A stretch of DNA of 64,000 nucleotides from a virus, in IMG/VR virus record IMGVR_UViG_3300043788_000169, positions 32,001-96,000 of that record. One strand, 5' to 3'. Below, piece after piece: positions 346 to 63,996 of this stretch (position 1 is the first letter of the stretch; every line of letters begins with the position of its first letter). Made by a program: the position numbers and the translations under genes. The notes under the pieces were generated by a model that searched no databases, had not been told where the DNA came from, and was given only the letters and a program-made list of their open reading frames with translations.

Positions 346-563
346 TGACGCTGCGCTACCGGGCCCATACCCGGCTGCCGTACGCCATGGCGCTGAGGGA
401 TCTGGCTGAGTACGCCCACACTCACCCGGACCCGGACTTCACGTTCGGGCCCATGACGTTGGAGCGCATGGAGAGCGAAGGCTTGGTCATTTCCGGGCCC
501 GGTCTGGAGGGTGTCAAGGCCCTCCTGAGCAGCGTTTCTGGTCTGGTCGAGTCGGATTCTTAG
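342..563 (+). CDS. hypothetical protein
   Basis: 73-aa ORF coupled to the upstream stop; ends at promoter repeat 1. Confidence 0.55.
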   Translation: MMTLRYRAHTRLPYAMALRDLAEYAHTHPDPDFTFGPMTLERMESEGLVISGPGLEGVKALLSSVSGLVESDS

Positions 564-593
564 TTGACACGTGTCTACCGCACGTGCTAGGTT
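563..593 (+). promoter_or_regulatory. repeat promoter/operator copy 1 (TTGACA-N18-TAGGTT), leaderless into ATG 600
   Basis: GTTGACACGTGTCTACC at 563-579; TAGGTT at 588-593; ATG 6 nt later with no RBS. Confidence 0.8.
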
Positions 594-599
594 TCTCCT

Positions 600-1697
600 A
601 TGACCACGATGCAGAGGCTTCGGCCTAGTCAGGTGCTGGGTGTCCAGGCAGAGCTGCGTGAGCGCTTCACCAAGCCGAGCCCGTATCTGAAGCACTGGCT
701 ACAGGAGATGGCTCGGTCTATGGACGCGTCCAGCGCGTTCCGGCGGCAGCTGATGTTTTACCCCTATGAGCCTCACCTGGATGAGGCTCATGCTGGGCTG
801 TTCGCTCAGTCTCTTGGCCGTGGCCTGTTCTCTGCGGAGACCTACCAGATCACCGACCACATGGTGGGGATTCTGGAGGATCTGTACTGGAACACCGTTA
901 AAAAAGGCGGGGCTGAGGCCGTGGAGGAGGAGCTGCTGCCCAGCAAGGCAGGCTTCATCTGGTATGACCGCCCCGTTGAGCTGCGCGAGCGCACTGGTGG
1001 TGTGGTGAGTATCCGGGCGGTCAGCTGGAATCCACAGGTTTTCTACTACGCCCAGACCGACGGGTTCGGCCGTGCCTCCATTCCGGTGGTCCGGGATGGC
1101 GTCCGGCTGAGTTTCTGGCAGCTTCGCGGAGATCCTACGGACTGGTCCGAGGTCATGGATTCGGAGGCTTCCCGCCAGGGAGATCTGCTGCTCCAGCACA
1201 CCGTGGCCTTGTCGTTCGGTGAGCGTTATCCGGTGCAGGCGATCACCGACTCCGCTGGTGATTCGATCAAGGGCAACTCGGTGCTGCACTGGGCCATCGT
1301 CACCTGGATGCTGCTGGACACTGAGATCGCCGCGGAGCAGCGTCAGCGTCCGGAGCAGCACAGCCGCCGGGCTAGGCAGGTAGCCCGCTCGCTCAAGCAC
1401 AATGAGGTCCGGGTCATCACACTGCGCCGGTCCAGCAAGCCCCAGGACGCCGATCACGTGGTGCAGCACCGCGACGTCGACTGGACGTGCTGCTGGGTGG
1501 TGGACGGCTTCTGGCGCCACATCGAGTCTTATGATGAAGACCTGTTCAAGAAAGGCCATCAGGCCAGGACCGACAAGGGCACTTCGCCGCGGTGCACGGT
1601 TTGCGGTGCGAAGATCACCCGGGTGAAATCCCACATCCGCGGCCCGGACTGGAAGCCGTTGCGTAACCCGGACCGGCTGTACCTGCTCAAGCGGTAA
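600..1697 (+). CDS. phage protein of unknown function
   Basis: 365-aa ORF with C-terminal VITLRR...WVVDGFWRH...VKSHIRGP motif and a CxxC. Confidence 0.8.
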   Translation: MTTMQRLRPSQVLGVQAELRERFTKPSPYLKHWLQEMARSMDASSAFRRQLMFYPYEPHLDEAHAGLFAQSLGRGLFSAETYQITDHMVGILEDLYWNTVKKGGAEAVEEELLPSKAGFIWYDRPVELRERTGGVVSIRAVSWNPQVFYYAQTDGFGRASIPVVRDGVRLSFWQLRGDPTDWSEVMDSEASRQGDLLLQHTVALSFGERYPVQAITDSAGDSIKGNSVLHWAIVTWMLLDTEIAAEQRQRPEQHSRRARQVARSLKHNEVRVITLRRSSKPQDADHVVQHRDVDWTCCWVVDGFWRHIESYDEDLFKKGHQARTDKGTSPRCTVCGAKITRVKSHIRGPDWKPLRNPDRLYLLKR

Positions 1698-1848
1698 GCC
1701 GGTGCTAGTCTGATAGCTGGTCCCCTGGCTCAGAACCCCAGAGACCGGCACCGAATGCACAGGCAGAGGCCCCAAGTACGCGCCACATAGCCCATCGGCC
1801 GGGCGGCGACCGAAAACGGGGCCTTTGCTGTTTCCCGATGATCTGCGC

Positions 1849-3090
1849 ATGGACCAGGTCATCATCCCGTGCCCGGCCGGAGGCGAATACTCCGAGATCG
1901 AGCTGGCGCGCGACCGCCAGGCCAAAGGCACCGTCTTCCGCAAGCACCTGCTGAACCTCGGCACACTGCACCACCCGAAGACCGGCGAGCCCCTGCAGCT
2001 GGATGACGCGTGGTATGGCCAGCTCAAGGCCAACTTCGACAACCAGGTCTGCGACATCGTCCAGGTCCCGCTTGCCGACGGCCAGAACCACCACACCGAG
2101 GACCCCCGGTCCAACGTGGGCGAGGTCATCGGGATCGAGCGCGAGGGCAACAAGATCTACAGCCTGGTCGACGTGCGCGATCCCAAGGCCGTCGAGGGCC
2201 TGCGCAGCGGCACGTTGCTCGGCGCGAGCGCCTTCCTGCACATGGACTACAAGGACACGCGCACGAACAAGAACGTCGGCCCGACGCTGCTGCACCACTG
2301 CATCACCAACCGCCCGTACGTCACCGGCCTGGAGGACTACCAGGAGGTCGTGGCTGCCACCGCCCCCGGCGGCAGTGAGGTGGTCGTGCTGGCCTCGGCG
2401 CCCGATGTCAATTCTGACCCCCCAGCCGATAAGGCACACGACGCAGCGACCCAGGAGGAGCTGTCCATGACCAAGGAAGAGATGCTGGCCGCTCTCAAGG
2501 CCGAGCACGGCATCGACGTTGAGGCTCTCCAGGTCCAGGCGTCCCAGCCCGCTCCCCCGGCAGCACCGCTCGATGAGGGCAAGCTCGTCGCTGCGTTCAC
2601 CGCGGCGCTGCAGCAGGCAGCTCCGACGCTGAGCCTGAGCAACACGCAGACCGAGGACGGCGCGCTTCAGCTGTCCGACGTCGTCGGGGCCGTGGCCGAG
2701 CTGGCTGGCCAGCACCGCGCATTCGGGGACCGGATCGTCGGCCTGGAGCGCGAGCGCGCCGAGCAGGAGATCGACATCTACATCTCCGAGGGTCGCGTGC
2801 TGCCCAAGCAGCGTGAGGCGTACGTGACCATGGCGCTGACCAACCGCGACCAGCTGGAGGTCATGCTCCCGGACAAGGCGATCGTGGCGCTCAACGCCCA
2901 GAAGGGCACTGGCGGCCGGCCGCAGGGCGAGCAGAAGCAGCAGCTGGACATCGACCAGGAGATCCTGCGGCTGACCGCCGAGAACGCCCAGATCTTCGAC
3001 CCGGAGGCTGCGCGCGACCCGCGCGCCCGTGTGATCGCCGCGAACGCGGCTGCCCAGGCAGCCCAGCTCGCGCTGACCAGCGGCAGCTGA
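1849..3090 (+). CDS. capsid maturation protease / scaffold (Mu gpI-like)
   Basis: Lies before decoration and capsid genes; N-terminal protease-like domain (LLHHCITNRPY) and helical C-terminus; start moved from 1825 to ATG 1849, 9 nt after CCGAT. Confidence 0.7.
   Translation: MDQVIIPCPAGGEYSEIELARDRQAKGTVFRKHLLNLGTLHHPKTGEPLQLDDAWYGQLKANFDNQVCDIVQVPLADGQNHHTEDPRSNVGEVIGIEREGNKIYSLVDVRDPKAVEGLRSGTLLGASAFLHMDYKDTRTNKNVGPTLLHHCITNRPYVTGLEDYQEVVAATAPGGSEVVVLASAPDVNSDPPADKAHDAATQEELSMTKEEMLAALKAEHGIDVEALQVQASQPAPPAAPLDEGKLVAAFTAALQQAAPTLSLSNTQTEDGALQLSDVVGAVAELAGQHRAFGDRIVGLERERAEQEIDIYISEGRVLPKQREAYVTMALTNRDQLEVMLPDKAIVALNAQKGTGGRPQGEQKQQLDIDQEILRLTAENAQIFDPEAARDPRARVIAANAAAQAAQLALTSGS
2467..3090 (+). 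CDS. putative in-frame nested scaffolding protein
   Basis: Internal AGGAGGAG RBS (2453-2460), in-frame ATG 2467 (MTKEEMLAALK), GCCGATAA at 2425-2432. Confidence 0.55.
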   Translation: MTKEEMLAALKAEHGIDVEALQVQASQPAPPAAPLDEGKLVAAFTAALQQAAPTLSLSNTQTEDGALQLSDVVGAVAELAGQHRAFGDRIVGLERERAEQEIDIYISEGRVLPKQREAYVTMALTNRDQLEVMLPDKAIVALNAQKGTGGRPQGEQKQQLDIDQEILRLTAENAQIFDPEAARDPRARVIAANAAAQAAQLALTSGS

Positions 3091-3143
3091 GCCCGCTCCG
3101 ACCGACCCGCCCGGCCAACTACGTCTGAGGGAGAGAACTCCAG

Positions 3144-15159: not shown

Positions 15160-15190
15160 GTTGACACGTGTCTACCACTGGGCTTACCGT
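15160..15190 (+). promoter_or_regulatory. repeat promoter/operator copy 2 (TTGACA-N18-TACCGT)
   Basis: GTTGACACGTGTCTACC at 15160-15176. Confidence 0.8.
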
Positions 15191-51227: not shown

Positions 51228-51258
51228 GTTGACACGTGTCTACCTGAGCAGTTATCTT
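51228..51258 (+). promoter_or_regulatory. repeat promoter/operator copy 3 (TTGACA-N18-TATCTT), leaderless into ATG 51266
   Basis: GTTGACACGTGTCTACC at 51228-51244. Confidence 0.8.
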
Positions 51259-51999: not shown

Positions 52000-52195
52000 A
52001 CGCAGAGAGCGTCGCCGGCGCTACCGGCAGGTGATGCGCTGCCGCACCATCCGGGCTCAGTCGGCCATGCTCCAGGAGGCGTGCCCGGAAGACCACGGCA
52101 ACGGCCATGTGGTGCTGTGGGCCGACCACAGGCCCTCCGCGGTCCGGCTTGATCTGCTGTGGGGCCTGTTCACCTTCACCCGCGATCCAAGTTGA
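51890..52195 (+). CDS. membrane protein
   Basis: N-terminal TM helix. Confidence 0.55.
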   Translation: MVLAALTIYSLIGGTMVFFVWAGLTGQLPYLFGASPERRERRRRYRQVMRCRTIRAQSAMLQEACPEDHGNGHVVLWADHRPSAVRLDLLWGLFTFTRDPS

Positions 52196-52221
52196 CACGT
52201 GTCTACCACTCTAAGTAGGCT
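52191..52221 (+). promoter_or_regulatory. repeat promoter/operator copy 4 (TTGACA-N18-TAGGCT), leaderless into ATG 52228
   Basis: GTTGACACGTGTCTACC at 52191-52207. Confidence 0.8.
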
Positions 52222-53259: not shown

Positions 53260-53396
53260 TCACTGTTCTCGTGGCGTGCGCGATCGGGCTGGTCCTTGCC
53301 GGGGGCATCTTCTGGTTTGCGTGGTGGACGACTGAGCCGCTTCGGGGCTACATGATTACCCGCGGCTGGCCGGCCGACCGGGTGCGCCGCCCGTGA
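53256..53396 (+). CDS. single-TM peptide
   Basis: MITVLVACAIGLVLAGGIFWFAWW. Confidence 0.55.
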   Translation: MITVLVACAIGLVLAGGIFWFAWWTTEPLRGYMITRGWPADRVRRP

Positions 53397-53653: not shown

Positions 53654-53686
53654 CACGCCCGTACGTGCAGGTCAGGAGCATAAATA

Positions 53687-53830
53687 TGTGGCCCGCCCGG
53701 CATAGCGCCCAGGCGGGCCACGAGCTTAGCGTGAGTGCTGTAGTCGATGGTGACGGGGATCTGGTGCAGTTCCCACGTCGGTGCAGCCGAGGAGGTGAGT
53801 CAGGCGGGCAGTTTGGCCGCTGCCCGCCTG
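53687..53830. terminator. two hairpins between convergent operons
   Basis: GTGGCCCGCC...GGCGGGCCAC (about 53687-53720) and CAGGCGGGCAG...CTGCCCGCCTG (53801-53830). Confidence 0.6.
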
Positions 53831-53837
53831 GCAAGCC

Positions 53838-54482
53838 CTACTTCAGCAGGCGAGCTACTGTCGTCAGGCTCGTGGTTCTCTCAAGCTGGGACAGCTTCTC
53901 CAGCCGTGCGATGATCAGCGCCAGCTCGTCCAGCTTGAAGCTCATCCGGTCGTCGTGGCGGTAGTCCCTCAGCACCTCGATGCCCAGCACTTCCAGGCGC
54001 GCTGAGAGGTCGTCGCGCTGGAGCTGGAGCCGGTTGCGTGCCGCGGTGGCTTCCTCCCGCTGGCGCCGGTCGTTGTCTTTCTGCCGGGCCATCTGCTGCA
54101 TCACCTCGTCGTAGAGCCCGATGACCGAGGCCATCCGGGTCAGCAGGGTGAGGTAGATCCCGGCGTCAGCGTGCTGCTGCGTCAGCCCCGTGGTGATCGC
54201 GATCGGCTTGATCCTCATCATCGTGGCGATCTGGTCTGGCAGGGCGTTCTGGCGCCCGATCAGCACCGGGTAGCCGACCGCAGGGGAATAGGTGGGCCGC
54301 CCGGCTGCCGGTTTGGTGTAGCCTGCGTCGCCGCCCGGCAGATATGCGGGATCGGAGGGCAGGTCGCCGCGCCACCTCTGGCGGTAGAGCGTGCTGGACA
54401 GAAACACCAGCGGCTGTGGGTGACTCCACGATCGGTTCTGGTAGGCGTAGACGATGCCTAGTTTGATGTCCTGTTTCCTCAT
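53838..54482 (-). CDS. hypothetical protein
   Basis: 214 aa in a coupled minus-strand operon. Confidence 0.7.
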   Translation of the reverse strand: MRKQDIKLGIVYAYQNRSWSHPQPLVFLSSTLYRQRWRGDLPSDPAYLPGGDAGYTKPAAGRPTYSPAVGYPVLIGRQNALPDQIATMMRIKPIAITTGLTQQHADAGIYLTLLTRMASVIGLYDEVMQQMARQKDNDRRQREEATAARNRLQLQRDDLSARLEVLGIEVLRDYRHDDRMSFKLDELALIIARLEKLSQLERTTSLTTVARLLK

Positions 54483-54973
54483 CGCTGGAAGTCCTCCGCT
54501 TGGCGGATCAGCAGCACCAGATCGCCGGGGCCGAGAGTGAGCGGGTATCCACGGCCACCATTCGGGTGGGTGCCGAGCAGCACGAGGTGGTCATAGATCC
54601 ACTCCCACCCCTCCCTGATCGCCTGTGCTGTCGTGGCCTGTTCGGCCGCGTCTTTGCACGCTTTCTCCCACGCGAGCGGGGTGAAGTACCAGACCTCGTT
54701 GGTTGGGCTGCGGTCGTATGGGTCCTTGTCGTTCTTCCCGACCTTGCGCACGGTGCCGTCGGCTGTGAGCTTGGCCATTGCCCGGGTGACCTGACCCTGG
54801 AAGGCGACGACCGCCCGCTGCTCGGCCCCGGTGCGGGCGTGTGCGTAGTCGTCCCAGAGGCCCATTCCCTGAGCGACGGCTTGTGTTGCCTCGTAGGACG
54901 CCACCCGCTGGTTGGTGGCTGCGATGTACTTGCGCGCAGCGTCCAGGACCGCGGCTGCTGTGACCTGGATCAT
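54479..54973 (-). CDS. hypothetical protein, possible winged helix
   Basis: VTRAMAKLTADGTVRKVG segment; ATGA overlaps. Confidence 0.65.
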   Translation of the reverse strand: MIQVTAAAVLDAARKYIAATNQRVASYEATQAVAQGMGLWDDYAHARTGAEQRAVVAFQGQVTRAMAKLTADGTVRKVGKNDKDPYDRSPTNEVWYFTPLAWEKACKDAAEQATTAQAIREGWEWIYDHLVLLGTHPNGGRGYPLTLGPGDLVLLIRQAEDFQR

Positions 54974-55299
54974 GATCGCCCCACCGAAGTCACCGTGAAA
55001 GAGTTGGCCACCACCGGCTTGATCACCATCTCCTCGCCTTTCGGCACGGTCGCCCGGATGCTGAGTTCCCCGTCTTTCAGCTCGACGTCGAACGACGTCC
55101 CTTCGTGCTTGTGGCCGAACCGCACCATCACGCCGGAGCCGAGAGGCCGGGGGGTGTCGGAGAACGGGTCAGCTACGGTGTCGCTGTCCTCGGGGCCGGC
55201 CGTGAGCTTGGTCTGTGTGGCTGCGAGACGGTTCTCCAGAAGTGCGACGTGTTGCTGTACCCATGCGGGCAGCTTGCTGGTGTTGCGTGTCTGGTTCAT
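54970..55299 (-). CDS. hypothetical protein
   Basis: GGAGG RBS. Confidence 0.7.
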   Translation of the reverse strand: MNQTRNTSKLPAWVQQHVALLENRLAATQTKLTAGPEDSDTVADPFSDTPRPLGSGVMVRFGHKHEGTSFDVELKDGELSIRATVPKGEEMVIKPVVANSFTVTSVGRS

Positions 55300-55308
55300 C
55301 GTTGCCTC

Positions 55309-55650
55309 CTAGTTCTGCTCTTCCAGCAGGTCGGCCCACCGTCCGGTGAACTCCTCGACTGCGGCGTCCACGATCGGCCACGCCCAGTGCGGGTAGTTGC
55401 CGGGCCCGTAGAAGGGCTCCCTGACCTCTCGTGTGCCCACGGTGCCGTCCTGCTTGATCACGTGGCTGTAGAAGTTGCCGCCGAAGATGCGCCAGGCGTT
55501 GCCGCCCTGGTAGCGCAGCTCGATGCGGATGCTGTGCGCGCGCAGCGTCCAGGGGTTGTACTTGTGCTGGTAGTCCGGCCAGTCGTCCTCGGGCCCGCGC
55601 TCGACGGTGATGTTGCCTCTTGCGTGAGCGCCCATCATGATCTTTGGCAT
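55309..55650 (-). CDS. hypothetical protein
   Basis: GGAGG RBS. Confidence 0.7.
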   Translation of the reverse strand: MPKIMMGAHARGNITVERGPEDDWPDYQHKYNPWTLRAHSIRIELRYQGGNAWRIFGGNFYSHVIKQDGTVGTREVREPFYGPGNYPHWAWPIVDAAVEEFTGRWADLLEEQN

Positions 55651-56091
55651 TTATGCCTCCTCCTGGAGCTTGGCCAGCCCGGCGTCGGTGAGCCCGTACT
55701 GGAGCCGGTGCATTGTGGGTGTTCCGAAAGACCGCACCGTGCTGTCGAGCAGGCCGAGGCGCACCAGCCTCTGGGCCAAGCCCGCCATTCTGGCCGGGGT
55801 GCTCTCCAGCGCTTCCGCGAGCATGACGTGTGTGGTGGCACCCTCGTGCACGGCGTTGAGCACCGTCCACAGGCCGTCGGCCATCCGCCTGTCCCGCTCG
55901 GCGGGCAGCAGCGTTGCGTAGATGTCGTGCTGGTCTGTGCGAGCCTGCTCCAGCACCTGCTGCAGTGCGTCGATGTTCCTGACCTTGATCATTTCGGCCT
56001 CGTCGGCCGCGAGGATCCACACCCGGCCCTGGTCGTCCACGCCGATCTGCGCGTCCGACTCGGGTACGTCGTAGGTGATTCGCATGTCCAT
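55651..56091 (-). CDS. protein with C-terminal MarR-like winged HTH
   Basis: VLNAVHEGATTHVMLAEALESTPARMAGLAQRLVRLGLL...YGLTDAG. Confidence 0.65.
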   Translation of the reverse strand: MDMRITYDVPESDAQIGVDDQGRVWILAADEAEMIKVRNIDALQQVLEQARTDQHDIYATLLPAERDRRMADGLWTVLNAVHEGATTHVMLAEALESTPARMAGLAQRLVRLGLLDSTVRSFGTPTMHRLQYGLTDAGLAKLQEEA

Positions 56092-56097
56092 AGGTGA

Positions 56098-56364
56098 TCA
56101 GCTCCCGTCACGCATCGCTGCGCGGATCTGGCGCCAGCGAACGACGTCGACCCGGCCGGCCCAGACCACCATGTTGGGGTGCTCGGGCACGATGTCTGTG
56201 TCGTTGTTGCGCTGCTCTGGTTCTGGTACCCGCAGTGTGGCGGGCGTGGCATCGCAGACTGGGCAGCATGGTCCAGGACGCACCCGGCCGCGGAGGTGGT
56301 CCCACTGCAGGCCGGTGCCCTTGCACGGCTGTGCCTGCAGCGGGTCTGTGTTCGGCACGGTCAT
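56098..56364 (-). CDS. small Zn-binding protein
   Basis: CKGTG...CPVC...H; conserved leader with GGAGG. Confidence 0.65.
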   Translation of the reverse strand: MTVPNTDPLQAQPCKGTGLQWDHLRGRVRPGPCCPVCDATPATLRVPEPEQRNNDTDIVPEHPNMVVWAGRVDVVRWRQIRAAMRDGS

Positions 56365-56397
56365 CTTTCAGCCTCCGTTCTCTGGGCTAGTGCTCAT

Positions 56398-56443
56398 ACA
56401 TTAACACATCAGGTTGACACGTGTCTACCGACTCTGCTAGGTT
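56398..56443. promoter_or_regulatory. repeat copy 5: divergent double promoter (TTGACA-N18-TAGGTT on +, TAGACA-N18-TAATGT on -)
   Basis: Motif at 56413-56429, at the point where gene orientation diverges. Confidence 0.75.
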
Positions 56444-56478
56444 TCTCTCATGACCACAGCCCAGTAAACGGAGGCCAG

Positions 56479-57411
56479 ATGGAAACCTACACGTACGCTG
56501 ACCCGGAGCTGTCGCCCCTGCCCATGCTGTGGGCGTGGCCCGGCTACATCCCGCGGCTGTGCATGACCATGGGATACGGCGAAGGCGGCACCATGAAAGG
56601 GCTGTCGGTCGTCAGCCTGCTGTCGCTGTTCAGCAACGGTCAGGACATGCCGGATGGCAGCCCGAACGGCTTCGGCAAGCCCGTCACCGTGGTCAATATC
56701 ACGGGCGAGGATCTGCGGCGGGAGGGCATGGCATGGCGCTACCGCGCGGCCGGCGCCGACACCCGCAACATCGTGGACCTGAGCACCGACGAGGATGGCA
56801 TGCCGTTCAAGCTGAGCAAGAAAGGTCTCGCCCTCATCCGCGAGGAGATCTGCAAGATCAATGCTCACGAGCCGGGAACCAAATACCAGCACATGGCCGA
56901 CTTCGGGATCTTGTACCTCGATCCCATGATGAGCATCGCGCCGCGGAACGTGTCCCAGAACACGACCTTCCGCTCGGTGCTGCTGGAGCCGCTGGACGCG
57001 CTGTGCTACGAGTTCAAGGCTGCTTGCTGGCTCATGAACCACACCACCAAGGACGGCAAGACCGTGGCCGGCTCGGCCGCCGCGACGCAGGGCCCGCGGA
57101 TGGTGCTCGGCTTCCGGCAGAGTGCCCGCAACCCCACGCACCGTGAGCTGTACCGGTTCAAGACCAACATCACCGAGAACACCCCCGCTCCGGTCCCGTA
57201 CATGAGCGAGGGCCGGGACACGAGTCTGCGGGTGCGGTGGATGACGGACTCCTGGGAGCAGCGCCGCAGCGGGTCCGGTGTCCTGAGCCGGTACGGCTCG
57301 CGCGCCTCGGAGGCCATGGCCCCCTCGCCAGTCCCGGCCCCGTACGCTGCCCCCATTCCGGAGCCGGCCAGCGTTGGCGAGATGTGGAAGAATCTCCAGT
57401 CCAGCATGTGA
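56479..57411 (+). CDS. AAA_25 / RepA-like P-loop protein with degenerate Walker A
   Basis: WAWPGYIP, GEGGTMKG, TGED, LYLDP, NHTTK and GSAA motifs. Confidence 0.75.
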   Translation: METYTYADPELSPLPMLWAWPGYIPRLCMTMGYGEGGTMKGLSVVSLLSLFSNGQDMPDGSPNGFGKPVTVVNITGEDLRREGMAWRYRAAGADTRNIVDLSTDEDGMPFKLSKKGLALIREEICKINAHEPGTKYQHMADFGILYLDPMMSIAPRNVSQNTTFRSVLLEPLDALCYEFKAACWLMNHTTKDGKTVAGSAAATQGPRMVLGFRQSARNPTHRELYRFKTNITENTPAPVPYMSEGRDTSLRVRWMTDSWEQRRSGSGVLSRYGSRASEAMAPSPVPAPYAAPIPEPASVGEMWKNLQSSM

Positions 57412-57418
57412 GGCAGTC

Positions 57419-57694
57419 ATGGAACGTATGCAGCTTGCCGACGCCCGATCAGGACTCGCGCTGCGTGAGGCTGTGTTCCTTGCGCGCGACCAGCGGCTTA
57501 CGACCGAGATCATCGAGGACGGCGTGGTGATCGCTGTCATCGGGCCAGCGCAGAGCGCGGAGCCGGGACAGGCCGCCCGCGACCAGGCGCCGGATGCGAT
57601 CGAGCAGGGCATCGCTGCGGCCAGCCGGCTGAATGCTCAGCTCGGCCTGGAGCTGACCCGTGTCCGCGATCTTGTTGCACAGCAGAGAAGGTAG
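57419..57694 (+). CDS. small protein with possible Phd/YefM-like N-terminus
   Basis: MQLADARSGL...EIIEDGVVIAVIGP resembles the Phd fold pattern. Confidence 0.5.
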   Translation: MERMQLADARSGLALREAVFLARDQRLTTEIIEDGVVIAVIGPAQSAEPGQAARDQAPDAIEQGIAAASRLNAQLGLELTRVRDLVAQQRR

Positions 57695-57702
57695 CTCACC
57701 TG

Positions 57703-57760
57703 GTTGACACGTGTCTACCTAGCACGTAGTGTTAGATCCAATCAGCCCAGCAAACGGAGG
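57703..57760 (+). promoter_or_regulatory. repeat copy 6 (TTGACA-N17-TAGTGT) plus conserved leader
   Basis: Motif 57703-57719; AGCCCAGCAAACGGAGG at 57744-57760. Confidence 0.8.
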
Positions 57761-57769
57761 ATGATGCAA

Positions 57770-58318
57770 ATGAAAGGTATCTGGACCAGAAACCACTTCG
57801 ACGTGATTGCTGCGGTGCTGCAGCGTGCTGTCGACACGGCTGACCACATCGAGGGGCCGCAGGGGAGCAGTGCGCACCGCGCGCTGGAGTTCGTGTGCGA
57901 GGCGTTCGTCGCGGTCTTCAACGCTGACAGCGAGCGCTTCCAGCCCGACCGGTTCCGCCAGGCAGCCGGCCTCGACCCCAAGGGCACCGCGGTCCAGCTC
58001 GATGAGCGGGAGATGTTCTTCTACGAGCACGCCAACTGGGCCGGGAAGTTCGACGGCGAGAGCGCGGCGCATGCCCGCGGCCGCACCGCGATCTTGCTGG
58101 CCGACGCGGAGCGGTGCCTGGAGAAGGCACCGGACACCCGCGTCGAGTGGGAGCGCGACCCTGCAGGCAAGGTCGGCACCGGTTTCTGGGGTGCCTACCT
58201 GTACCAGGGCGGCAGTTTCCTCGGCTCGGACGACGTGGAGCTGACCGGCGACCCGGGGAAGGACTCCATTCGCAAGAGAGTCACCACCGCGGTCCTCGCG
58301 CTGGAGTACCTTGCCTGA
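57770..58318 (+). CDS. hypothetical protein
   Basis: RBS-supported ATG; FQPDRFRQAAG motif. Confidence 0.7.
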   Translation: MKGIWTRNHFDVIAAVLQRAVDTADHIEGPQGSSAHRALEFVCEAFVAVFNADSERFQPDRFRQAAGLDPKGTAVQLDEREMFFYEHANWAGKFDGESAAHARGRTAILLADAERCLEKAPDTRVEWERDPAGKVGTGFWGAYLYQGGSFLGSDDVELTGDPGKDSIRKRVTTAVLALEYLA

Positions 58319-58321
58319 CAG

Positions 58322-58377
58322 GAGGTGAGTGGACTCCACCTCGGAGCACCAGTTCTGCGCTGCAGGCTGGTGCTCCG
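58322..58377 (+). terminator. tandem hairpins
   Basis: GAGGTG...CACCTC and CGGAGCACCAG...CTGGTGCTCCG. Confidence 0.55.
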
Positions 58378-58412
58378 CTGTGTGCGAGGGTACTCCGTAA
58401 GGCCGTGGGTAG

Positions 58413-58473
58413 GTTGACACGTGTCTACCGTACCACTACCATGGGGATAGATGAAAGCCCACCGAACGGAGGC
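58413..58473 (+). promoter_or_regulatory. repeat copy 7 (TTGACA-N17-TACCAT) plus conserved leader
   Basis: Motif 58413-58429; AGCCCACCGAACGGAGGC at 58456-58473. Confidence 0.8.
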
Positions 58474-58477
58474 CGCC

Positions 58478-58774
58478 ATGACAGCCATACGGGTCACTGT
58501 GGAAGCGATGAAGCATCCGGAGGTGCGGGAAACCCTGGAGGTCGATACTGATCTGCCGCTCCCGCTCACTGCGGACGGGGTAGCGCAGCTCCGGAACTCC
58601 CTGAACGGCCAGAGCAAGGTCACGGCCGTCGCGGGGTCGTTCTGGATTCGCCACGTGCGCGACGAGCACGGCGGCTGCGTGGAGTGCGGCATGCTCGTCT
58701 CCGGCCGGTTCGGCCATGGCCCGTCGTGCTCGGTGCCGACCGGCGGCGAGCCTGCCCCGGTGCTGTTCTCGTGA
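58478..58774 (+). CDS. hypothetical protein with C-terminal CxxC..H..C
   Basis: ATG after the conserved leader. Confidence 0.65.
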   Translation: MTAIRVTVEAMKHPEVRETLEVDTDLPLPLTADGVAQLRNSLNGQSKVTAVAGSFWIRHVRDEHGGCVECGMLVSGRFGHGPSCSVPTGGEPAPVLFS

Positions 58775-58956
58775 GGCCGCACCGCTGCTCGCGCCGGCTG
58801 TGCTTCCGCATCGCCCCGATCTGGGTAGGCGTCCCCGGCACGTGGCCAGCCCCGTCGGCCGTCGGCCGGTGGTCCTGCCGACGGCATGCAGGACGGCTGC
58901 GCACCAAGCTGATCCGCGAGATGAGGAAGCACCACCCGTGGCACTTCCACGGGTGA
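58771..58956 (+). CDS. small basic Cys protein
   Basis: GTGA overlap; CSRRLC...CRRH. Confidence 0.45.
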   Translation: MRPHRCSRRLCFRIAPIWVGVPGTWPAPSAVGRWSCRRHAGRLRTKLIREMRKHHPWHFHG

Positions 58957-58996
58957 AGATCCCCGATTATCTGTATCAGCAGAGAGGAGGCAGTTC

Positions 58997-59227
58997 ATGA
59001 TCATTCTTACGGCTGGCGAGCCCGACCTAGGCCGGGCCGAGACCATGCACGAGCTTGCGTGTGCTGCCTACGATGCAGCTCGCGCGGAAGTTCTCCGGCT
59101 CATCGAAGAGCTGGACGCGACGTACCAGCGGCTGAGTGCGAACACACAGCTTGTCGACACGTCCGCGGTCAACCTCGCGGATACCTGCCAGGCGGCCGGC
59201 CTCACGCCGGTCCTGGAGCCAGCCTAG
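58997..59227 (+). CDS. hypothetical helical protein
   Basis: GAGGAGG RBS. Confidence 0.6.
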   Translation: MIILTAGEPDLGRAETMHELACAAYDAARAEVLRLIEELDATYQRLSANTQLVDTSAVNLADTCQAAGLTPVLEPA

Positions 59228-59241
59228 GCTGGCACAGCGCT

Positions 59242-59269
59242 CGGGCCCGGGACTAGCTCCCCGGGCCCG
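59242..59269. terminator. hairpin between convergent genes
   Basis: CGGGCCCGGG-loop-CCCGGGCCCG. Confidence 0.6.
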
Positions 59270-59300
59270 TTCGCATGTGTGCAGGACTGTTCGGATCTGT

Positions 59301-59627
59301 TCAGACCTCCGGCCGGCTCGGCCACGGAAACGCGCGCCGCAGCTCGGTCAGGTCGGTCAGGTCGGGTGGCTCCGGCAGGTCGTATGGTGCCTCGTCCGGC
59401 GTCACGAGCGTGAAGTCCTGTACGTCGATGATCTCGTACCCGGCAGCCTGCGCCTGCGCGGCCGCGTCGTCGCTGTCACGCGCTTGGTAGCTCGGCCCGG
59501 TCCATCCGCTAGGGGACATCACCGTGTACGTCTCCAGGAAGCTCTGCGGGCCGACTGGAGCGGCTTCCTCGTCCGGCTCGCCTGCGGGCTGCATGCGGAG
59601 GAGGTCTTTGGTCTGCTGTGCGTCCAT
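59301..59627 (-). CDS. acidic hypothetical protein
   Basis: GAGGAG RBS before ATG 59627. Confidence 0.6.
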   Translation of the reverse strand: MDAQQTKDLLRMQPAGEPDEEAAPVGPQSFLETYTVMSPSGWTGPSYQARDSDDAAAQAQAAGYEIIDVQDFTLVTPDEAPYDLPEPPDLTDLTELRRAFPWPSRPEV

Positions 59628-59631
59628 GCGG

Positions 59632-59916
59632 CTACTCCTCGCCCGTGCAGGTGCCCGCGGCCATCGCAAAGAGCGTGGCGAGGTTGACCTCCGCAACGGG
59701 CTTGCCGTCCTGGTACAGCGTGACGTACATCTCCAGGGCTGGCCAGTCGTAGCCGTGCCGGGTCTGCTCCTCCTCGCCCCAGAAGCCGGCGTTGTCGAAG
59801 CTGTGACCCTGGACCTCTGCGGTCACCTCTCGCTCGTCCGGCTCGTGCCAGTCGGCCCGCATGCCAAGCTCGCGTGCAACGGCCTGCAGCTCGGCCTGTG
59901 TGTGAATCATCTTCAT
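59632..59916 (-). CDS. hypothetical protein
   Basis: GGAGG RBS; LGMRADWHEPDE motif. Confidence 0.7.
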   Translation of the reverse strand: MKMIHTQAELQAVARELGMRADWHEPDEREVTAEVQGHSFDNAGFWGEEEQTRHGYDWPALEMYVTLYQDGKPVAEVNLATLFAMAAGTCTGEE

Positions 59917-59926
59917 GGGTGCCTCC

Positions 59927-60481
59927 CTACTGCAGCACGATCCGGGTCTTGTCCTCCAGAGCGCTAGGCTCCACGTGGGCCGGGTATTCCGACCCGTCGC
60001 GCGCCCGGACCATCAGCGGAAGGTCACTCTGCAGCGAGGGATCGGTTGCCGGGATGATGATCTCCCCGGACGCTTCGATCTGGTAGGCCGGCGTGGCGGG
60101 CAGAGACACCACGGTGCACATGCTGAAGAGCATGATCCGGAACTCGCCCGCGGCGACCTCCAGGACCGCCGGCGTGCCTTGCGGAGCGTAGGTGCCTGGC
60201 GTCGCACAGCGGCACGGGGTGTCTGGCTGGCTGTCGTGGTAGTGGCCGGCCTCGTCTTCCGGGATGACCCGGCCGATCGACCACGAGCCTTCCGCGAGCA
60301 CGTCTCCGTCTTCGTCCGTCACGGTGATCTCTCCGCCGCTGGCCACGGTCCACGCGCTCATCGGTGGCATGTCGTAGTCAGGACTTAGCGCAACGATGTC
60401 CAGCGCATCGCTCGCGTCGCTGGCCACGATGGTCACGTTCGCGTAGAGCACGCGCTCCAGTCGCACATCAAACTCTGGCAT
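59927..60481 (-). CDS. acidic hypothetical protein
   Basis: 184 aa, D/E-rich. Confidence 0.65.
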   Translation of the reverse strand: MPEFDVRLERVLYANVTIVASDASDALDIVALSPDYDMPPMSAWTVASGGEITVTDEDGDVLAEGSWSIGRVIPEDEAGHYHDSQPDTPCRCATPGTYAPQGTPAVLEVAAGEFRIMLFSMCTVVSLPATPAYQIEASGEIIIPATDPSLQSDLPLMVRARDGSEYPAHVEPSALEDKTRIVLQ

Positions 60482-60535
60482 GGGTCATCACTTCCGTTCT
60501 GGTTGTGGGGGTTCTCCGGTTGGCCGGAGGCGCGC

Positions 60536-61022
60536 TCAGCGGATCCAGTAGTCGACTCCGCCGAAGCTGACCGAGGTGTAGTCGATCTTGAGTTCGTTGG
60601 CTGCCGCTTCCCAGTCGATGTGATTCAGCGGCCACTGCGCGTTGCGGGAGATCGCGCCGATGTCGCTGGCCAGATCTTCCGCGTAGGTCTCGAAGTAGGA
60701 GTCACGGATCAGGGACTCCCCGTGCTCCCAGTCGGGCGCGTAGCCGGAAGCCTCCCCGGCCAGCTCGCGGAGCTGCTCCAGCTCTTTCCGTCTGGTCCTC
60801 GTCCAGCCCGACCCCGTACTTCTCTGCCTGCTCGCGCAGGCTGGCCAGCTCGGCCGCCTCGTCGTCGGACACCCCCGGGTGTGTCTCCAGTGCGCGCAGT
60901 TCCGCGAGCCGGCGCTCTTGCGCTTCCAGCTCGGACAGCTCTTCGATCCGCGCGATCACGTCGCGGCTGTCAATCAAGTCCTCGTCGTTGGTGATCGGGT
61001 CGGTAGCTGTGATCTCTGCCAT
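60536..61022 (-). CDS. acidic ArdA-like antirestriction candidate, split by a +1 frameshift at 60785-60787
   Basis: IDSRDVIARIEEL... then, one base on, ELEQLRELAGEASGYAPDWEHGESLIRDSYFETYAEDLASDIG...IDWEAAANELKIDY...YWIR*. Confidence 0.6.
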
Positions 61023-61028
61023 GTCCAT

Positions 61029-61087
61029 CGCCTCCGTTTGCTGGGCTGTGCTCACAGCTTAGCGGATAGGTAGACACGTGTCAACCA
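61029..61087 (-). promoter_or_regulatory. repeat copy 8 (TTGACA-N17-TAAGCT) plus conserved leader
   Basis: Motif at 61069-61085; 59 bp nearly identical to 61995-62052. Confidence 0.85.
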
Positions 61088-61285
61088 GTTAGGGAACTCC
61101 GGCAGCGGGCATAATGGAGCTGTGACCATTCTGGTGCTCAGCCTTCTGGCGCTCGCCTTCCTGTGCCGCCGGCCGATCGGCGCATGGGCGGTGCGCAAGC
61201 TCACGCGCCTGGCGATCAAGCTCCGCCCGTTCGGTATCGCCTATGTGCTGCTGCTCGCGTTTTTCTTTGGTGTCCTGCACGTCTG

Positions 61286-61317
61286 AGGGCCCGCCCAGAC
61301 GCATCTAGGCGGGCCCT
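61286..61317 (-). terminator. hairpin after 61332..61991
   Basis: AGGGCCCGCC...GGCGGGCCCT. Confidence 0.6.
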
Positions 61318-61331
61318 GGAGTGCTTGTGCG

Positions 61332-61991
61332 CTACTCCTCGTCGTCCTCGTAGGGCTTGACCTGTGCGCGCTGGTCTCCGTCGAAGAATGCACGGGTCTC
61401 CAGGTTGTTGCTGAGGATCAGGCCAAGGGTGCCGTAGTCGGCCTCCACGGTCCACGTGCCCTCGTAGGGGTCCGAGGCGAACATCACCGTGTCACCCTCG
61501 GAGAACTGGACACCCTCCAGCGGCTTGAGCTTCAGCTCGGTCTCTCCGTCCTCCTGGAACGCGTAGACCTCCGCGCCAATGTCGTCCGTGTTGCCGCGCT
61601 CGTTCTGGTACCACGCGTTGGGGTAGCACCCGGACTCCACCATGAGCTTGGCCAGCTCGTAGGTGGCGATCTCGCGCGTGGGATATCCCGGCTCGCGCCA
61701 GTAGGCCGGGCGGTGCGTGCCTTCCATGACCACGCGGTAGGTGCCGCGGTCCTCGGTCACGTAGGCGTCGAACTCGTCGGGCCGGTCCTCCCAGTCAGCG
61801 AGCATGGCCGACGCGTCCAGCGTGGCATTGGCGAGCGCACCGTGCAGCTCGTCCATGTCGGTATGGAGCCGGCCACACTCAATCTCCACCTCATCCCCGC
61901 TGTCCGTGGTGATCTTGAGGGTGATGGCTCCGTACTCGTCATCGGCGCGAGTGATCTCGAATGATGGGTTGCCGTTCAGTGTGAGCTTCAT
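61332..61991 (-). CDS. acidic hypothetical protein
   Basis: ATG 61991 after the conserved leader; D/E-rich. Confidence 0.75.
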   Translation of the reverse strand: MKLTLNGNPSFEITRADDEYGAITLKITTDSGDEVEIECGRLHTDMDELHGALANATLDASAMLADWEDRPDEFDAYVTEDRGTYRVVMEGTHRPAYWREPGYPTREIATYELAKLMVESGCYPNAWYQNERGNTDDIGAEVYAFQEDGETELKLKPLEGVQFSEGDTVMFASDPYEGTWTVEADYGTLGLILSNNLETRAFFDGDQRAQVKPYEDDEE

Positions 61992-61994
61992 GTG

Positions 61995-62052
61995 CGCCTC
62001 CGTTTGTGGGCTGTGCTCACAGCTTAGCGGATAGGTAGACACGTGTCAACCA
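61995..62052 (-). promoter_or_regulatory. repeat copy 9 (TTGACA-N17-TAAGCT) plus conserved leader
   Basis: Motif at 62034-62050. Confidence 0.85.
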
Positions 62053-62083
62053 AAAGGCCCCCGGAAGTTAGATCCGGGGGCCT
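62052..62083 (-). terminator. intrinsic terminator
   Basis: Minus strand AGGCCCCCGGA...TCCGGGGGCC followed by TTTT. Confidence 0.75.
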
Positions 62084-62099
62084 CCGTAAGGCCGGAGCG

Positions 62100-62495
62100 C
62101 TAGGAGACCAGCGCGAGGAATGGCGCGGTGCTCCGTGGTCGGCGGTACGGTGCGTACTGCCTGACCTGCCTGATGAAGTCAGCGCGTCCCTTGTACTGGC
62201 CGATGATCGCATCCGGGTCGATCTTGAAGAGGTGCGCGATCATCCAGCCGTAGTCATCCCACGACGCGGCGCGTAGCTCGTCGTCCAGCGGGTAGCTGCC
62301 GATAGTGCGGTGCGCGGTCGGCCTCGTGCCGTGGTGGCTGTAGGCGTAGAACTGCACGCCCTGGCTGTAGCCGGCCAGCCGCGGGCGGAAGTCCCGAACA
62401 TCGTCGGGCCAGATGTCCGCTCCGTTCAGCAGACGCGCCAGGCGGAAAGCCTCGCGCACGTCGTCTGAGGTGATCTTGGTGCTGTAGACCTTCAT
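62100..62495 (-). CDS. hypothetical protein
   Basis: AASWDDYGW...LFKIDPDA motif; conserved leader. Confidence 0.75.
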   Translation of the reverse strand: MKVYSTKITSDDVREAFRLARLLNGADIWPDDVRDFRPRLAGYSQGVQFYAYSHHGTRPTAHRTIGSYPLDDELRAASWDDYGWMIAHLFKIDPDAIIGQYKGRADFIRQVRQYAPYRRPRSTAPFLALVS

Positions 62496-62502
62496 GGGCT
62501 TG

Positions 62503-62565
62503 GCCTCCGTTTAGTGGGCTTGGCTTCCATCACCTATCGAAGCACATTGGTAGACACGTGTCAAC
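62503..62565 (-). promoter_or_regulatory. repeat copy 10 (weak -10) plus conserved leader
   Basis: Motif 62549-62565; AGCCCACTAAACGGAGGC at 62503-62520. Confidence 0.7.
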
Positions 62566-62661
62566 CACCATAGGGAACTCCGTAAGGCCGCGGGCAGCAA
62601 AGACCGCCCGTACCGGCAGGCACGAGCGGTCTCCAGGCCCGATGCAGTTATTCCGAGAGAG

Positions 62662-62940
62662 CTAGGGATAGAACCGGATAGTCGGAACCCCGTTCGCGTC
62701 CCGCTCGGTCACGGTCTCCTCGCGCGGCTCGTAGGCGATCCAGTCTCCGTCGTCAGTGATCGCCCGTACGGGTATCACGTTGCCGGCCGCGTCGGTGGCC
62801 AGCACGAGTCCGGGCCCTAGCACGTCCGCCTCCAGGTAGTAGGTTGCCGACTCAAGGCTGGGCTTAGGCAGGGACAGATGAATCTTGCCATCCCTGCCAG
62901 TGAACGCCGCGACATAGGGGGCTTGGTGTGCAGTGCTCAT
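62662..62940 (-). CDS. hypothetical protein
   Basis: GGAG RBS before ATG 62940. Confidence 0.6.
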   Translation of the reverse strand: MSTAHQAPYVAAFTGRDGKIHLSLPKPSLESATYYLEADVLGPGLVLATDAAGNVIPVRAITDDGDWIAYEPREETVTERDANGVPTIRFYP

Positions 62941-62967
62941 AGAGATCAGCTCCATTCTCCGATGCAT

Positions 62968-63156
62968 CTATTTTGGCAATAGGCCAAGCTCGCGCATGTC
63001 ATCCATCACCACCCCGAACGGGCTGGAGCCGTCCGGGATCGCTGCCACGCGCCTGGCGAGATCAGTCAGGTACAGCCGCACCGCAAGCGCGTAGGTCTCA
63101 GGCGTGCCGTGGAATTGCCAGGGCACGCGCACGGCCGACTCATCCGTCGCTGCCAT
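62968..63156 (-). CDS. hypothetical protein
   Basis: AAGGAGG RBS. Confidence 0.6.
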   Translation of the reverse strand: MAATDESAVRVPWQFHGTPETYALAVRLYLTDLARRVAAIPDGSSPFGVVMDDMRELGLLPK

Positions 63157-63499
63157 GCGCCTCCTTGCCGGGCCAGCGCGGCACGTGTGGCCCGTTGCCG
63201 GCCGGATAGCAGTGATCGTCCCCGGACGTGTCGAATACGCGTCCGTCGCTCGCTAGGTGCACGTAGTCACCACAGCCACGACAGGTCACACCAGGGAGGT
63301 GCGGGGATACCTGAATCAGGAACTGTGAGCCGGCCGCATCGGTGTAGATGAAAGACGCGCCCGTGTTCCATTCCTCCGGCTCAGAGCAGCCGCTCAGGAT
63401 GAGATCTCCGGTTGACAGCTCTTGCGCGACGGACAGCGCATGCTCTGGTTTGGCCAGCGCGCAGAACTCATCCCACAGGGGATCATGCGGTGTGCTCAC
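63140..63499 (-). CDS. hypothetical protein with CxxC...C...H
   Basis: GTG 63499 (MSTPHDPLW), GTGA overlap. Confidence 0.6.
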   Translation of the reverse strand: MSTPHDPLWDEFCALAKPEHALSVAQELSTGDLILSGCSEPEEWNTGASFIYTDAAGSQFLIQVSPHLPGVTCRGCGDYVHLASDGRVFDTSGDDHCYPAGNGPHVPRWPGKEAHGSDG

Positions 63500-63657
63500 A
63501 GCCTCACCCCACGATGCACAGGATGATTGATGGGGGTAGCTCGCAAGCGCCGGCGGGCCCGCTTCTGGAGTTCGTGCCATCCTGGCCACGGTCTCAGCAG
63601 ATACAGCATGTGCCGGCGGCACTCCGGGCAGATCAGGAGGAGCACGAGCGCTGTCAT
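63496..63657 (-). CDS. small hypothetical protein
   Basis: ATGA overlap; CPEC. Confidence 0.4.
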   Translation of the reverse strand: MTALVLLLICPECRRHMLYLLRPWPGWHELQKRARRRLRATPINHPVHRGVRL

Positions 63658-63929
63658 GACGCCGGCCGCGGGGGAGCAATCCAGCATCCTGGCTGGCTCG
63701 CGTCGAAACGCTCATACCATGCATCGCTGGCAGCCTCCGCCTGTGCGTGCGCCTCCGCGCTGTCACGCGGCTGTGCGTCAAGCTCAGCCTGCCTAGCTGT
63801 GCGCTGGTGATACGCGAAATTCTGTTCCGCTATCCTGTTGTACGCTCCGCCCTGCGCGACGTGGCCACAAGTGCAGGTGATGAAACGCTCACCTAGCATT
63901 GTCCGGTCGCTGGAAATCTCGTGCTTCAT
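63654..63929 (-). CDS. hypothetical protein
   Basis: ATG after the conserved leader; CTCGH. Confidence 0.65.
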   Translation of the reverse strand: MKHEISSDRTMLGERFITCTCGHVAQGGAYNRIAEQNFAYHQRTARQAELDAQPRDSAEAHAQAEAASDAWYERFDASQPGCWIAPPRPAS

Positions 63930-63936
63930 GGTCCTA

Positions 63937-63996
63937 GCCTCCGTTTGTGGGCTTTGCTGTGTCCTCATTGTCTCATGCCGGTAGACACGTGTCAAC
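63937..63996 (-). promoter_or_regulatory. repeat copy 11 (TTGACA-N17-GACAAT) plus conserved leader
   Basis: Motif 63980-63996; AGCCCACAAACGGAGGC at 63937-63953. Confidence 0.75.

Follow-up and report, generated by a model that had tools for sequence, protein, structure and literature searches.

Our results suggest that the promoters of an uncultured phage are read by two different proteins. The DNA we analyzed is a 64,000-nucleotide stretch (the window) that covers bases 32001–96000 of the 132.5-kb virus record IMGVR_UViG_3300043788_000169 (G000; CheckV completeness 83%). It contains eleven identical copies of the 17-bp dyad GTTGACACGTGTCTACC, the left half of which contains a −35 hexamer. 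Judging from sequence comparisons, we think that these dyad promoters are probably gated by a dimeric second reader, which would have a TetR-like operator preference and compete with sigma.

The 17-mer occurs without mismatch at 563, 15160, 51228, 52191, 56413, 57703 and 58413 on the + strand and at 61069, 62034, 62549 and 63980 on the − strand. All eleven copies reported in the initial annotation of this DNA were thus recovered (11 of 11 in a zero-mismatch scan). With up to three mismatches there are 22 matches in the window, compared with 0.05 expected (100 shuffles); each site also matches its own near-palindromic complement. Extended to the whole record and its relatives, as the annotation had suggested, the scan yields 18 dyads in the record, of which 14 are exact and four differ at one base, and dyads with lineage-specific right arms in the relatives. 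Of these four, the copies at genome 15754 and 124590 have the centre ACGG, that at ~100490 ends in T, and that at ~103085 is the perfect palindrome GTAGACACGTGTCTAC with TAGAC in both halves. The element is indeed a 16-bp inverted repeat with one fixed mismatch, as had been noted, and together with the preceding G and the last C it extends to an 18-bp dyad, GGT[T/A]GACAC followed by GTGTC[T/A]ACC. Its centre lies 1.5 bp past the −35 hexamer, near −29.5. Across 35 copies from G000 and the related genome G001, the information content ranges from 1.5 to 2.0 bits over the 17 positions and is 1.1 bits at position −1. The eight spacer bases after the dyad hold at most 0.42 bits, in agreement with the free spacer variation described before.

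Each of the 18 dyads in G000 is part of a cassette, in which the dyad is followed by a −10-like hexamer and then by a conserved leader or a leaderless start. TTGACA is present in 17 of the 18 dyads, and the perfect palindrome carries TAGACA. At three further sites TAGACA serves as the −35 on the opposite strand, so that this half is used in four cassettes: two bidirectional ones, a flipped one and the perfect palindrome. A TAnnnT hexamer is found 17–18 bp past the −35 hexamer in 12 of the 18 dyads of the record and in 9 of the 11 window dyads. The nine are those listed initially; the remaining two window dyads have TTCGAT (62549) and GACAAT (63980). Four more dyads carry nAnnnT at the same spacing (GACAAT, CAGGAT, GACTAT and GAGTCT), which brings the total to 16 of 18. 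The comparison hence supports the original reading of these sites as primary-sigma-type promoters, and we treat the cassettes as predicted SigA/HrdB-type promoters with predicted starts. A generic promoter scan recovers only three of the nine dyad copies within its range. It misses most of them because it scores likeness to TATAAT.

Comparison with G001 shows how strongly the dyad is retained. In all 15 orthologous cassette pairs the 17-mer is identical (255 of 255 bases), while the flanks have diverged: identity is 88.6% over 60 nt upstream, 86.7% over the eight spacer bases and 90.7% over 60 nt downstream. Three site-specific variants are also retained in G001, namely ACGG before the tRNA array, ACGG before a 362-aa gene (fam166) and ..ACT at the flipped site. 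The symmetry of the 18-bp dyad is therefore kept beyond what polymerase needs, as one would expect of an operator.

In other relatives the dyad has changed, and the way in which it has changed is informative. We identified their dyads from de novo word and palindrome counts and from pattern searches. TTGAC-N4-GTCAA (usually CTTGAC-N4-GTCAAG) occurs 26 times in G003, 30 in G005, 32 in G006, 23 in G007, 13 in G008, 25 in G009 and 11 in G013. TTGAC-N4-GTCAGGT occurs 28 times in G004, TTGAC-N4-GCCAAG seven times in G002 (plus two sites with TTGGC/GCCAA) and TTGAC-N4-GTCAGG or GTCAAG 2–3 times in G010. Control patterns in reverse order gave 0–2 matches in total per genome. There are no TTGAC-N4-GTCAA sites in G011, G012 or phage Magritte, and phage Mildred21 has one match to TTGAC-N4-GTCNA versus four control matches. 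All lineages share TTGAC as their left arm. Right arms do not vary within a genome but do so among lineages, with four types (GTCAAG, GTCTAC, GTCAGG and GCCAAG). Changes in a half-site are thus concerted over the copies of a genome, or mirrored in symmetric sites, a pattern expected of operators. The promoter of fam166 bears its own genome's dyad type in seven of nine genomes, and that of the AAA_25 ATPase gene in six of eight. With both arms of the relatives' commonest dyad being TTGAC, and TAGACA acting as −35 in four cassettes of G000, we cannot uphold the earlier proposal that a fixed asymmetry keeps TTGACA on one strand.

The symmetric sites point in the same direction. Within the four asymmetric genomes (G000, G001, G002 and G004), five fully symmetric sites carry the variant arm twice (two in G002, one in each of the others) and none carries TTGAC on both sides. 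The numbers are small and the test is modest (about p = 0.03–0.06 if both outcomes are equally likely). In the lineage with symmetric dyads the sites come with a −10 of their own and with another conserved leader, and the centre varies, with TCAA, TCTA and TCCA (transcribed strand) making up 51 of 75 one-sided sites. By a strict pattern, TAnnnT and the leader are present on exactly one side of 75 of the 113 dyads in G003, G005, G006 and G009, on both sides of none and on neither side of 38. Two overlapping constraints predict a fixed TTGAC left arm, concerted right arms and mirrored variants. The arm pattern of the relatives does not follow from asymmetric contact with polymerase, from a hairpin or from gene conversion.

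The dyad also looks like a TetR operator. Its 10-bp core GACACGTGTC is identical in the sites of two TetR-family proteins. EilR of Enterobacter lignolyticus has the operator eilOc, GTTGGACACGTGTCCAAC, which has been used in gel shifts and co-crystals (PMC6127294). LtmA (Ms6479) of Mycobacterium smegmatis protects CGGACACGTGTCCG with the core GGACANNTGTCC (PMC3526308). According to the available parts of these two reports, both sites are even-centred palindromes like the phage dyad (eilOc is about 18 bp long) and the binder is a homodimeric helix-turn-helix protein. In the same parts, the outer bases are TTGGACAC and CGGACAC, compared with GGT[T/A]GACAC in the phage dyad, and the sites are described as single chromosomal operators beside the regulator gene, whereas the phage has 18 copies, each of which is also a −35, and no TetR gene.

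An identical site exists in putative hosts. An exact scan for the 17-mer in 185,579 species genomes returned 22 loci: ten in Streptomyces/Kitasatospora, one each in Nocardia, Lentzea and a Nanopelagicales metagenome-assembled genome (MAG), and nine in unrelated phyla. All ten Streptomycetaceae matches share their flanking sequence and a second, inverted copy ~16–27 bp away. In the three Streptomycetaceae loci examined with flanks, this pair of sites lies between a gene for a DUF4345-type membrane protein and a TetR gene. Pfam matches at these loci are 6e-26 (one locus) and 4e-32 (Lentzea) for DUF4345, with no match for the Kitasatospora copy, and 1.5e-14 and 2e-17 for TetR_N. Only this host locus has a TetR gene next to the site; none was found in any of nine phage genomes. 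Each of five host genomes searched has one DUF4345/TetR locus with one or two sites (on two contigs in one genome); hence the host site is a local operator rather than a regulon. The 17-mer is identical (18 bases in some species) and again fused to TTGACA, and the inverted second copy makes the TTGACA halves face outward. The host locus differs from the phage cassettes in that TAnnnT follows after 19 bp, behind one TTGACA half (two sequences counted), in that the regulator is encoded alongside, and in that there is one locus per genome versus 18 copies in the phage. We know of no publication on the DUF4345/TetR intergenic region.

From their position, we infer that the TetR proteins bind the adjacent host sites. 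Related sites are found upstream of their relatives: GTTGACATGCGTCTACT upstream of a TetR with 76% identity to the Kitasatospora protein (from other Actinomycetes), GTAGACGTGCGTCTACC at 59% and GTTGAACCGACGTCAAG at about 40% identity. TTGAC/TAGAC-N4-GTCAA/GTCTA therefore appears to be the operator class of a TetR subfamily. The 17-mer is also intergenic in four Firmicutes MAGs (L155, L159, L160 and L161; Clostridia, Ruminococcaceae), which form two look-alike pairs. A second related palindrome is located near each copy, which is suggestive of operators for a different regulator.

The cassette anatomy, the selection on the 17 bases, the concerted right arms and the likeness to TetR operators can be read directly from the genomes, and from them we infer binding, repression and timing as follows. 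Host SigA holoenzyme would fire the cassettes. A dimeric helix-turn-helix protein would recognise the dyad as well, whose left half is the −35 hexamer. Once bound, the dimer would span about −38 to −21 and occlude the −35 in competition with sigma region 4, so that one dimeric protein could hold shut, or release, ~19 transcription units together. The asymmetry of the dyad would then be a trade-off, in which sigma keeps the left arm at TTGAC and the right arm shows the half-site that the second reader prefers. The ACGG-centre variants before the tRNA array and fam166, which G000 and G001 share, may be weaker than the other sites and so escape or lag behind. A cascade from dyad promoters to phage sigmas (the core sigma and fam166) could follow. 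The model predicts that affinity for the second reader falls from a perfect TAGAC palindrome to the natural site GGTTGACACGTGTCTACC and on to a double TTGAC. Two kinds of protein could be the second reader: the TetR-family repressor of the host that has the same 17-mer as its operator, or a phage protein with a different fold. In the more specific version, the phage has wired essentially all its strong promoters to the TetR-family small-molecule sensor that Streptomycetaceae encode beside DUF4345, and the relatives have retuned their right arms to the regulators of other hosts. A host TetR as reader would explain the absence of a phage-encoded binder, yet we consider this version doubtful.

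Several observations weigh against a second reader in general and a host TetR in particular. Sequence searches of the phage genomes found no protein that binds the dyad. A six-frame hmmsearch of nine phage genomes with a profile of up to 19 host TetRs found no TetR-like open reading frame at E ≤ 10, and tblastn and phmmer searches for TetR in the phage genomes gave nothing better than E about 2. No protein family tracks the difference between dyad-rich and dyad-poor genomes, except for a probable tail chaperone. The identity with the host operator may be due to chance and is only suggestive: with even base composition, 596 Gb should contain ~69 random matches to a 17-mer, more than the 22 obtained. 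For Streptomycetaceae we estimate ~0.6 expected matches, and the ten that were found represent one orthologous locus and hence one event. The exact 16-mer of the relatives' commonest dyad was found in none of 401 sampled Actinomycetes genomes. Furthermore, a promoter with a perfect −35 can do without an activator, and it is not obvious why a lytic phage should put each of its promoters under a repressor. The initial claim that one dimeric protein could switch all these promoters thus stands in part. A symmetric dimeric reader probably best explains the selection and the mirroring, and no such protein was found in the phage genomes.

The searches did produce weak candidates. A 98-aa HTH_17/Cox-like protein belongs to the core of all nine genomes (Pfam E 0.0023, with Atlas leads). 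It shows no clear co-variation with the right arm across the nine genomes, and its family profile matched nothing below E 0.86 among PDB sequences. A 146-aa winged-helix-like protein (window 55654–56091; MarR_2 E 0.044, Atlas 0.86) and a Cox-like protein (window 54482–54973; E 0.0023) belong to the leftward operon of the bidirectional dyad at 56413; jackhmmer searches with the proteins of this operon revealed no wider family. Genomes of the symmetric-dyad lineage have a ribbon-helix-helix protein in common, as well as a GntR/HutC-type regulator that is also found in G004. The fam166 protein looks sigma-like, based on three weak but concordant matches. Its N-terminus weakly resembles sigma region 2 (Pfam Sigma70_r2, E 0.011), and the best matches of its profile among PDB sequences are to Mycobacterium tuberculosis SigE (E about 0.8). 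The predicted fold is of low confidence (mean predicted local distance difference test score 68, predicted template-modeling score 0.32). Foldseek gave it no match at E ≤ 0.001; among the weak matches, all above E 0.1, sigma factors predominate. One sigma-E region-2 chain (probability 0.98, template-modeling score 0.70 by target, 95 columns) is a lead only.

The most obvious alternative is that the dyads are promoters and nothing else, with RNA polymerase holoenzyme as their sole reader. The right arm would then be an upstream-spacer optimum specific to each lineage, or would owe its uniformity to gene conversion between cassettes, and the palindrome would be a by-product. TTGACA and TAnnnT at 17–18 bp do suffice for a strong promoter, the failure to find a binder in the phage genomes fits, and the cassettes look paralogous (563 and 56413 have TAGGTTTCTC..ATGACCAC in common). 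Gene conversion would homogenise the adjoining spacer too, yet the spacer is nearly free of information. There are no core changes in 255 bases between G000 and G001 compared with ~11% flank divergence, and asymmetric polymerase contact predicts neither mirrored left-arm variants nor flipped dyads. Hence we find this explanation unlikely. One could also argue that a phage sigma (the core sigma, fam153, or the sigma-like fam166) reads the 17-mer as an extended −35 of a middle or late promoter class. Invariant promoters of ~17 bases are typical of phage-specific polymerases or sigmas, the sigma gene is core in nine of nine genomes, and copies of the dyad precede the capsid operon, the tRNA array and genes of the replication module. 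The combination of TTGACA and TAnnnT is the primary-sigma pattern, however. As we read the alignment, the phage sigma lacks primary-sigma residues in its region 4.2, which varies among lineages that keep TTGAC. A monomeric sigma domain would explain neither the dyad symmetry nor the mirrored variants or flipped sites. As fam166 itself lies behind a dyad promoter in seven of nine genomes, something else must fire it first. A phage sigma as the reader of the dyad therefore strikes us as quite improbable.

Two further explanations concern the symmetry alone. The dyad could be a compact bidirectional promoter module that provides a −35 on both strands, and two dyads in G000 (window 56413 and genome 100845) do drive full cassettes both ways. 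These are only 2 of 18, none of the 113 dyads in G003, G005, G006 and G009 is two-sided, and by our reading of the sequence the gene-distal side is often occupied by a terminator-like hairpin, which makes a bidirectional module very unlikely as a general explanation. It is still harder to believe that the dyad works by forming a hairpin, be it in read-through RNA or in DNA (processing, termination or a cruciform). Although it often follows terminator-like hairpins and the 16-mer of the relatives can fold at −5.1 kcal/mol, the 17-mer of G000 reaches only −2.3 kcal/mol with a mismatch. The right arm changes among lineages without a compensating change in the left arm, which is the opposite of what pairing requires.

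Promoter–operator overlap and multi-copy phage operators are both already known, and several systems invite comparison with a dimeric reader of the dyad promoters. The stoperators of Cluster A mycobacteriophages, bound by L5 gp71, are dozens of copies of one short repressor site; CTTGACA is part of this site, which at the early promoter Pleft overlaps the −35. They are asymmetric 13-mers, bound by a monomer, mostly located within transcription units without a −10, where they block elongation and confer prophage immunity. The phage sites are dyads with a −10, some of them flipped or bidirectional, and hence not stoperators. MerR-type promoters place a TTGAC-type −35 by a dyad as well, with a 19–20-bp spacer and a dyad centred near −24. 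With a spacer of 17–18 bp and a dyad centre near −29.5, our sites do not belong to this type. The early promoters of phi29 carry boxes for the host's Spo0A, and other phage promoters carry host LexA boxes. There, as here if the second reader is a host protein, a lytic phage carries the sites of a host regulator on its own promoters and the state of the host gates infection. In those cases the sites are few and the regulators global; here it would be a local TetR-type sensor at every cassette. Cluster O mycobacteriophages have more than 30 17-bp palindromes per genome with invariant arms and a variable centre, TGTTCGG-N3-CCGAACA; in the available part of that report these are separate from the mapped SigA-like promoters, lie outside the −35 and are in many cases intragenic (PMC4351075). 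The literature we searched (without supplements) contains no paper on the motif or the clade. Nor did we find in it the combination of a −35 within a TetR-type dyad in every cassette, four concerted right arms and identity with a host operator.

The genes behind the dyads are not limited to early or non-structural functions. In G000 a dyad is followed by a leader and start codon, by a leaderless ATG or by the tRNA array. The first window dyad (563..579, +; TTGACA 564–569, TAGGTT 588–593, 18-bp spacer) has a possible leaderless ATG at 600 and an alternative start at 633. It is located between a MuF-like gene and a run with the Mu-I-type protease/scaffold, decoration protein and major capsid protein. 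The initial annotation had all copies pointing into non-structural genes, which the capsid-assembly genes behind dyad 563 contradict. Its notion of an early regulon is also difficult to maintain, as the same promoter precedes the capsid operon, the array of ~31 tRNAs, a core sigma-like gene and many small genes.

The second window dyad (15160..15176, +) has TACCGT at 15185–15190 after an 18-bp spacer. The nearest called gene starts at 15394, 233 nt on, with an uncalled short open reading frame with a Shine-Dalgarno sequence in between. Dyad 51228..51244 (+) has TATCTT at 51253–51258 and a leaderless-type ATG at 51266, 7 nt past the −10, which opens a 91-aa gene. Dyad 52191..52207 (+) has TAGGCT at 52216–52221 and a leaderless-type ATG at 52228 of an 88-aa gene; its operon extends to a WhiB gene (53393–53650). 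In these two cassettes (window 51253–51268 and 52216–52230) the ATG lies 6–7 nt past the −10, and the messages look leaderless from their sequence; 563 with its ATG at 600 is possibly a third case. The bidirectional dyad (56398..56443, 17-mer 56413–56429) has TTGACA-N18-TAGGTT (56438–56443) on the top strand, followed by a leader and the AAA_25 ATPase gene (56479–57408). On the bottom strand, TAGACA (56427–56422) and TAATGT (56403–56398) are separated by 18 bp and followed by the leader AGCCCAGAGAACGGAGGC and the ATG at 56364 of the leftward operon (53838–56364). Two + strand dyads with 17-bp spacers and leaders follow: 57703..57719 (TAGTGT 57727–57732, gene 57770–58318) and 58413..58429 (TACCAT 58437–58442, gene 58478–58774).

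The remaining window dyads are on the − strand and have leaders. Dyad 61069..61085 has TAAGCT at 61061–61056 after a 17-bp spacer and a gene start at 61022. Dyad 62034..62050, directly preceded by a terminator-like hairpin with a T run, has TAAGCT at 62026–62021 and a gene start at 61991. Dyad 62549..62565 is without a canonical −10 (TTCGAT at 17 bp; gene start 62495), and dyad 63980..63996 has GACAAT at 63972–63967 after a 17-bp spacer and an ATG at 63929. Several dyads adjoin the terminator-like hairpin of the preceding unit. Outside the window, the ACGG-centre dyads at genome 15754 and 124590 lie upstream of the tRNA array and of fam166, a core gene. The dyad at genome 100845 is bidirectional and built like that at window 56413, the flipped dyad at genome ~100490 has TAGACA facing the −10 TACGGT, and the cassette of the perfect TAGAC palindrome at genome ~103085 retains a leader and a 356-aa gene.

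The conserved leader AGCCCAnn(A/G)AACGGAGGC, with the Shine-Dalgarno sequence AGCCCAnnAAACGGAGGC, lies 0–11 nt before the start codon in most cassettes. Copies are found at window 56466–56474, 57752–57760 and 58464–58472 (+) and near 61039, 62005, 62512 and 63946 (−). The leader may serve as a signal for translation or as a further binding site. The different leader of the relatives, ..AACCGA..GAAGGGCAGGCAC, is located 1–6 nt before the ATG and presumably resembles the start-associated sequences of Cluster K mycobacteriophages. A region of ~850 bp in G000 (103100–103950, outside the window) lacks any called gene. TGTGAT/ATCACA repeats are numerous in it, and the leader motif occurs there twice on the − strand as an orphan. 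This region could be a replication origin or a regulatory region.

The source phage is an uncultured actinobacterial siphophage of about 140 kb from soil. G000 has a G+C content of 67%, and its 173 proteins were called with our own codon-usage script rather than a curated caller. Pfam and PHROG scans identified a Mu-type portal, a MuF-like protein, a Mu-I-type protease/scaffold, a lambda-type decoration protein and an E-type major capsid protein. A 2456-aa protein without family match occupies the tape-measure position. The genome also encodes WhiB, LysM and FHA domains, DnaB, PolA, a sliding clamp, a clamp loader and a sigma factor. Neither an integrase nor an immunity repressor was named by these scans. 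No RNA polymerase family was found among the 173 proteins at Pfam E ≤ 0.001 in this 83% complete record, so the dyads do not qualify as promoters of a phage single-subunit RNA polymerase. ARAGORN found 31 tRNAs at 15.6–20.4 kb (15629–20444), downstream of an ACGG-centre dyad promoter, one of them an odd call with a 4-base anticodon.

IMG/VR contains many uncultured relatives of 124–152 kb with capsid proteins that are 65–72% identical. G001 (141.7 kb) has a 100% identical capsid protein (residues 16–419 matched) and an ATPase with 79% identity. The nearest isolates are distant: Microbacterium phage Magritte reaches 50% identity in the capsid protein, 45% in the terminase and 34% in PolA, and Streptomyces BE-type phages such as Mildred21 reach 31% in the terminase. 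A megablast of window 50000–64000 against phage records gave no match, and a DNA search of window 50900–64000 against 201 Streptomycetaceae genomes matched only the WhiB gene (72–82% identity, four genomes). The clade has up to three sigma-like genes (G000 116869–117516, G000 124682–125770 and G006 88263–89057). The first, the core sigma, matches PHROG 351 (E 2.6e-12), the second is fam166, and the third gene is of the extracytoplasmic-function (ECF) type and sits in the small-gene region of the symmetric-dyad lineage. Two large tail-region genes occupy window 40544–46198 and 48667–50925. They encode an 1885-aa protein with a Spherulin4 domain (1e-33) and a 753-aa protein with a C-terminal K1-lyase domain (1.6e-24), which suggests that the latter is a polysaccharide-degrading tail spike. 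NADAR, FHA, LysM and WhiB domain proteins are encoded amid small genes at window 15919–16419, 21678–21962, 23161–23931 and 53393–53650.

The dyad offers an experimental handle on gene expression in a clade of ~140-kb soil actinophages that has no cultured member: a single oligonucleotide could pull down the regulator. The combination of terminator, dyad promoter and leader would also be a compact, portable and probably repressible promoter for high-GC bacteria. More generally, the dyad would be a clean case from nature of two codes superimposed within 18 bp, with the left arm frozen by the host sigma factor and the right arm free to follow a second reader. The trace of this following would be the concerted change seen in four or more lineages, with 9 to 32 promoters per genome involved. 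If the second reader is a host TetR, then a ligand-sensing local repressor would join the short list of host factors that time infection, and Kitasatospora or Streptomyces would be suggested as the host. Whether infection goes ahead or the phage genome waits would in that case depend on the host's chemical state.

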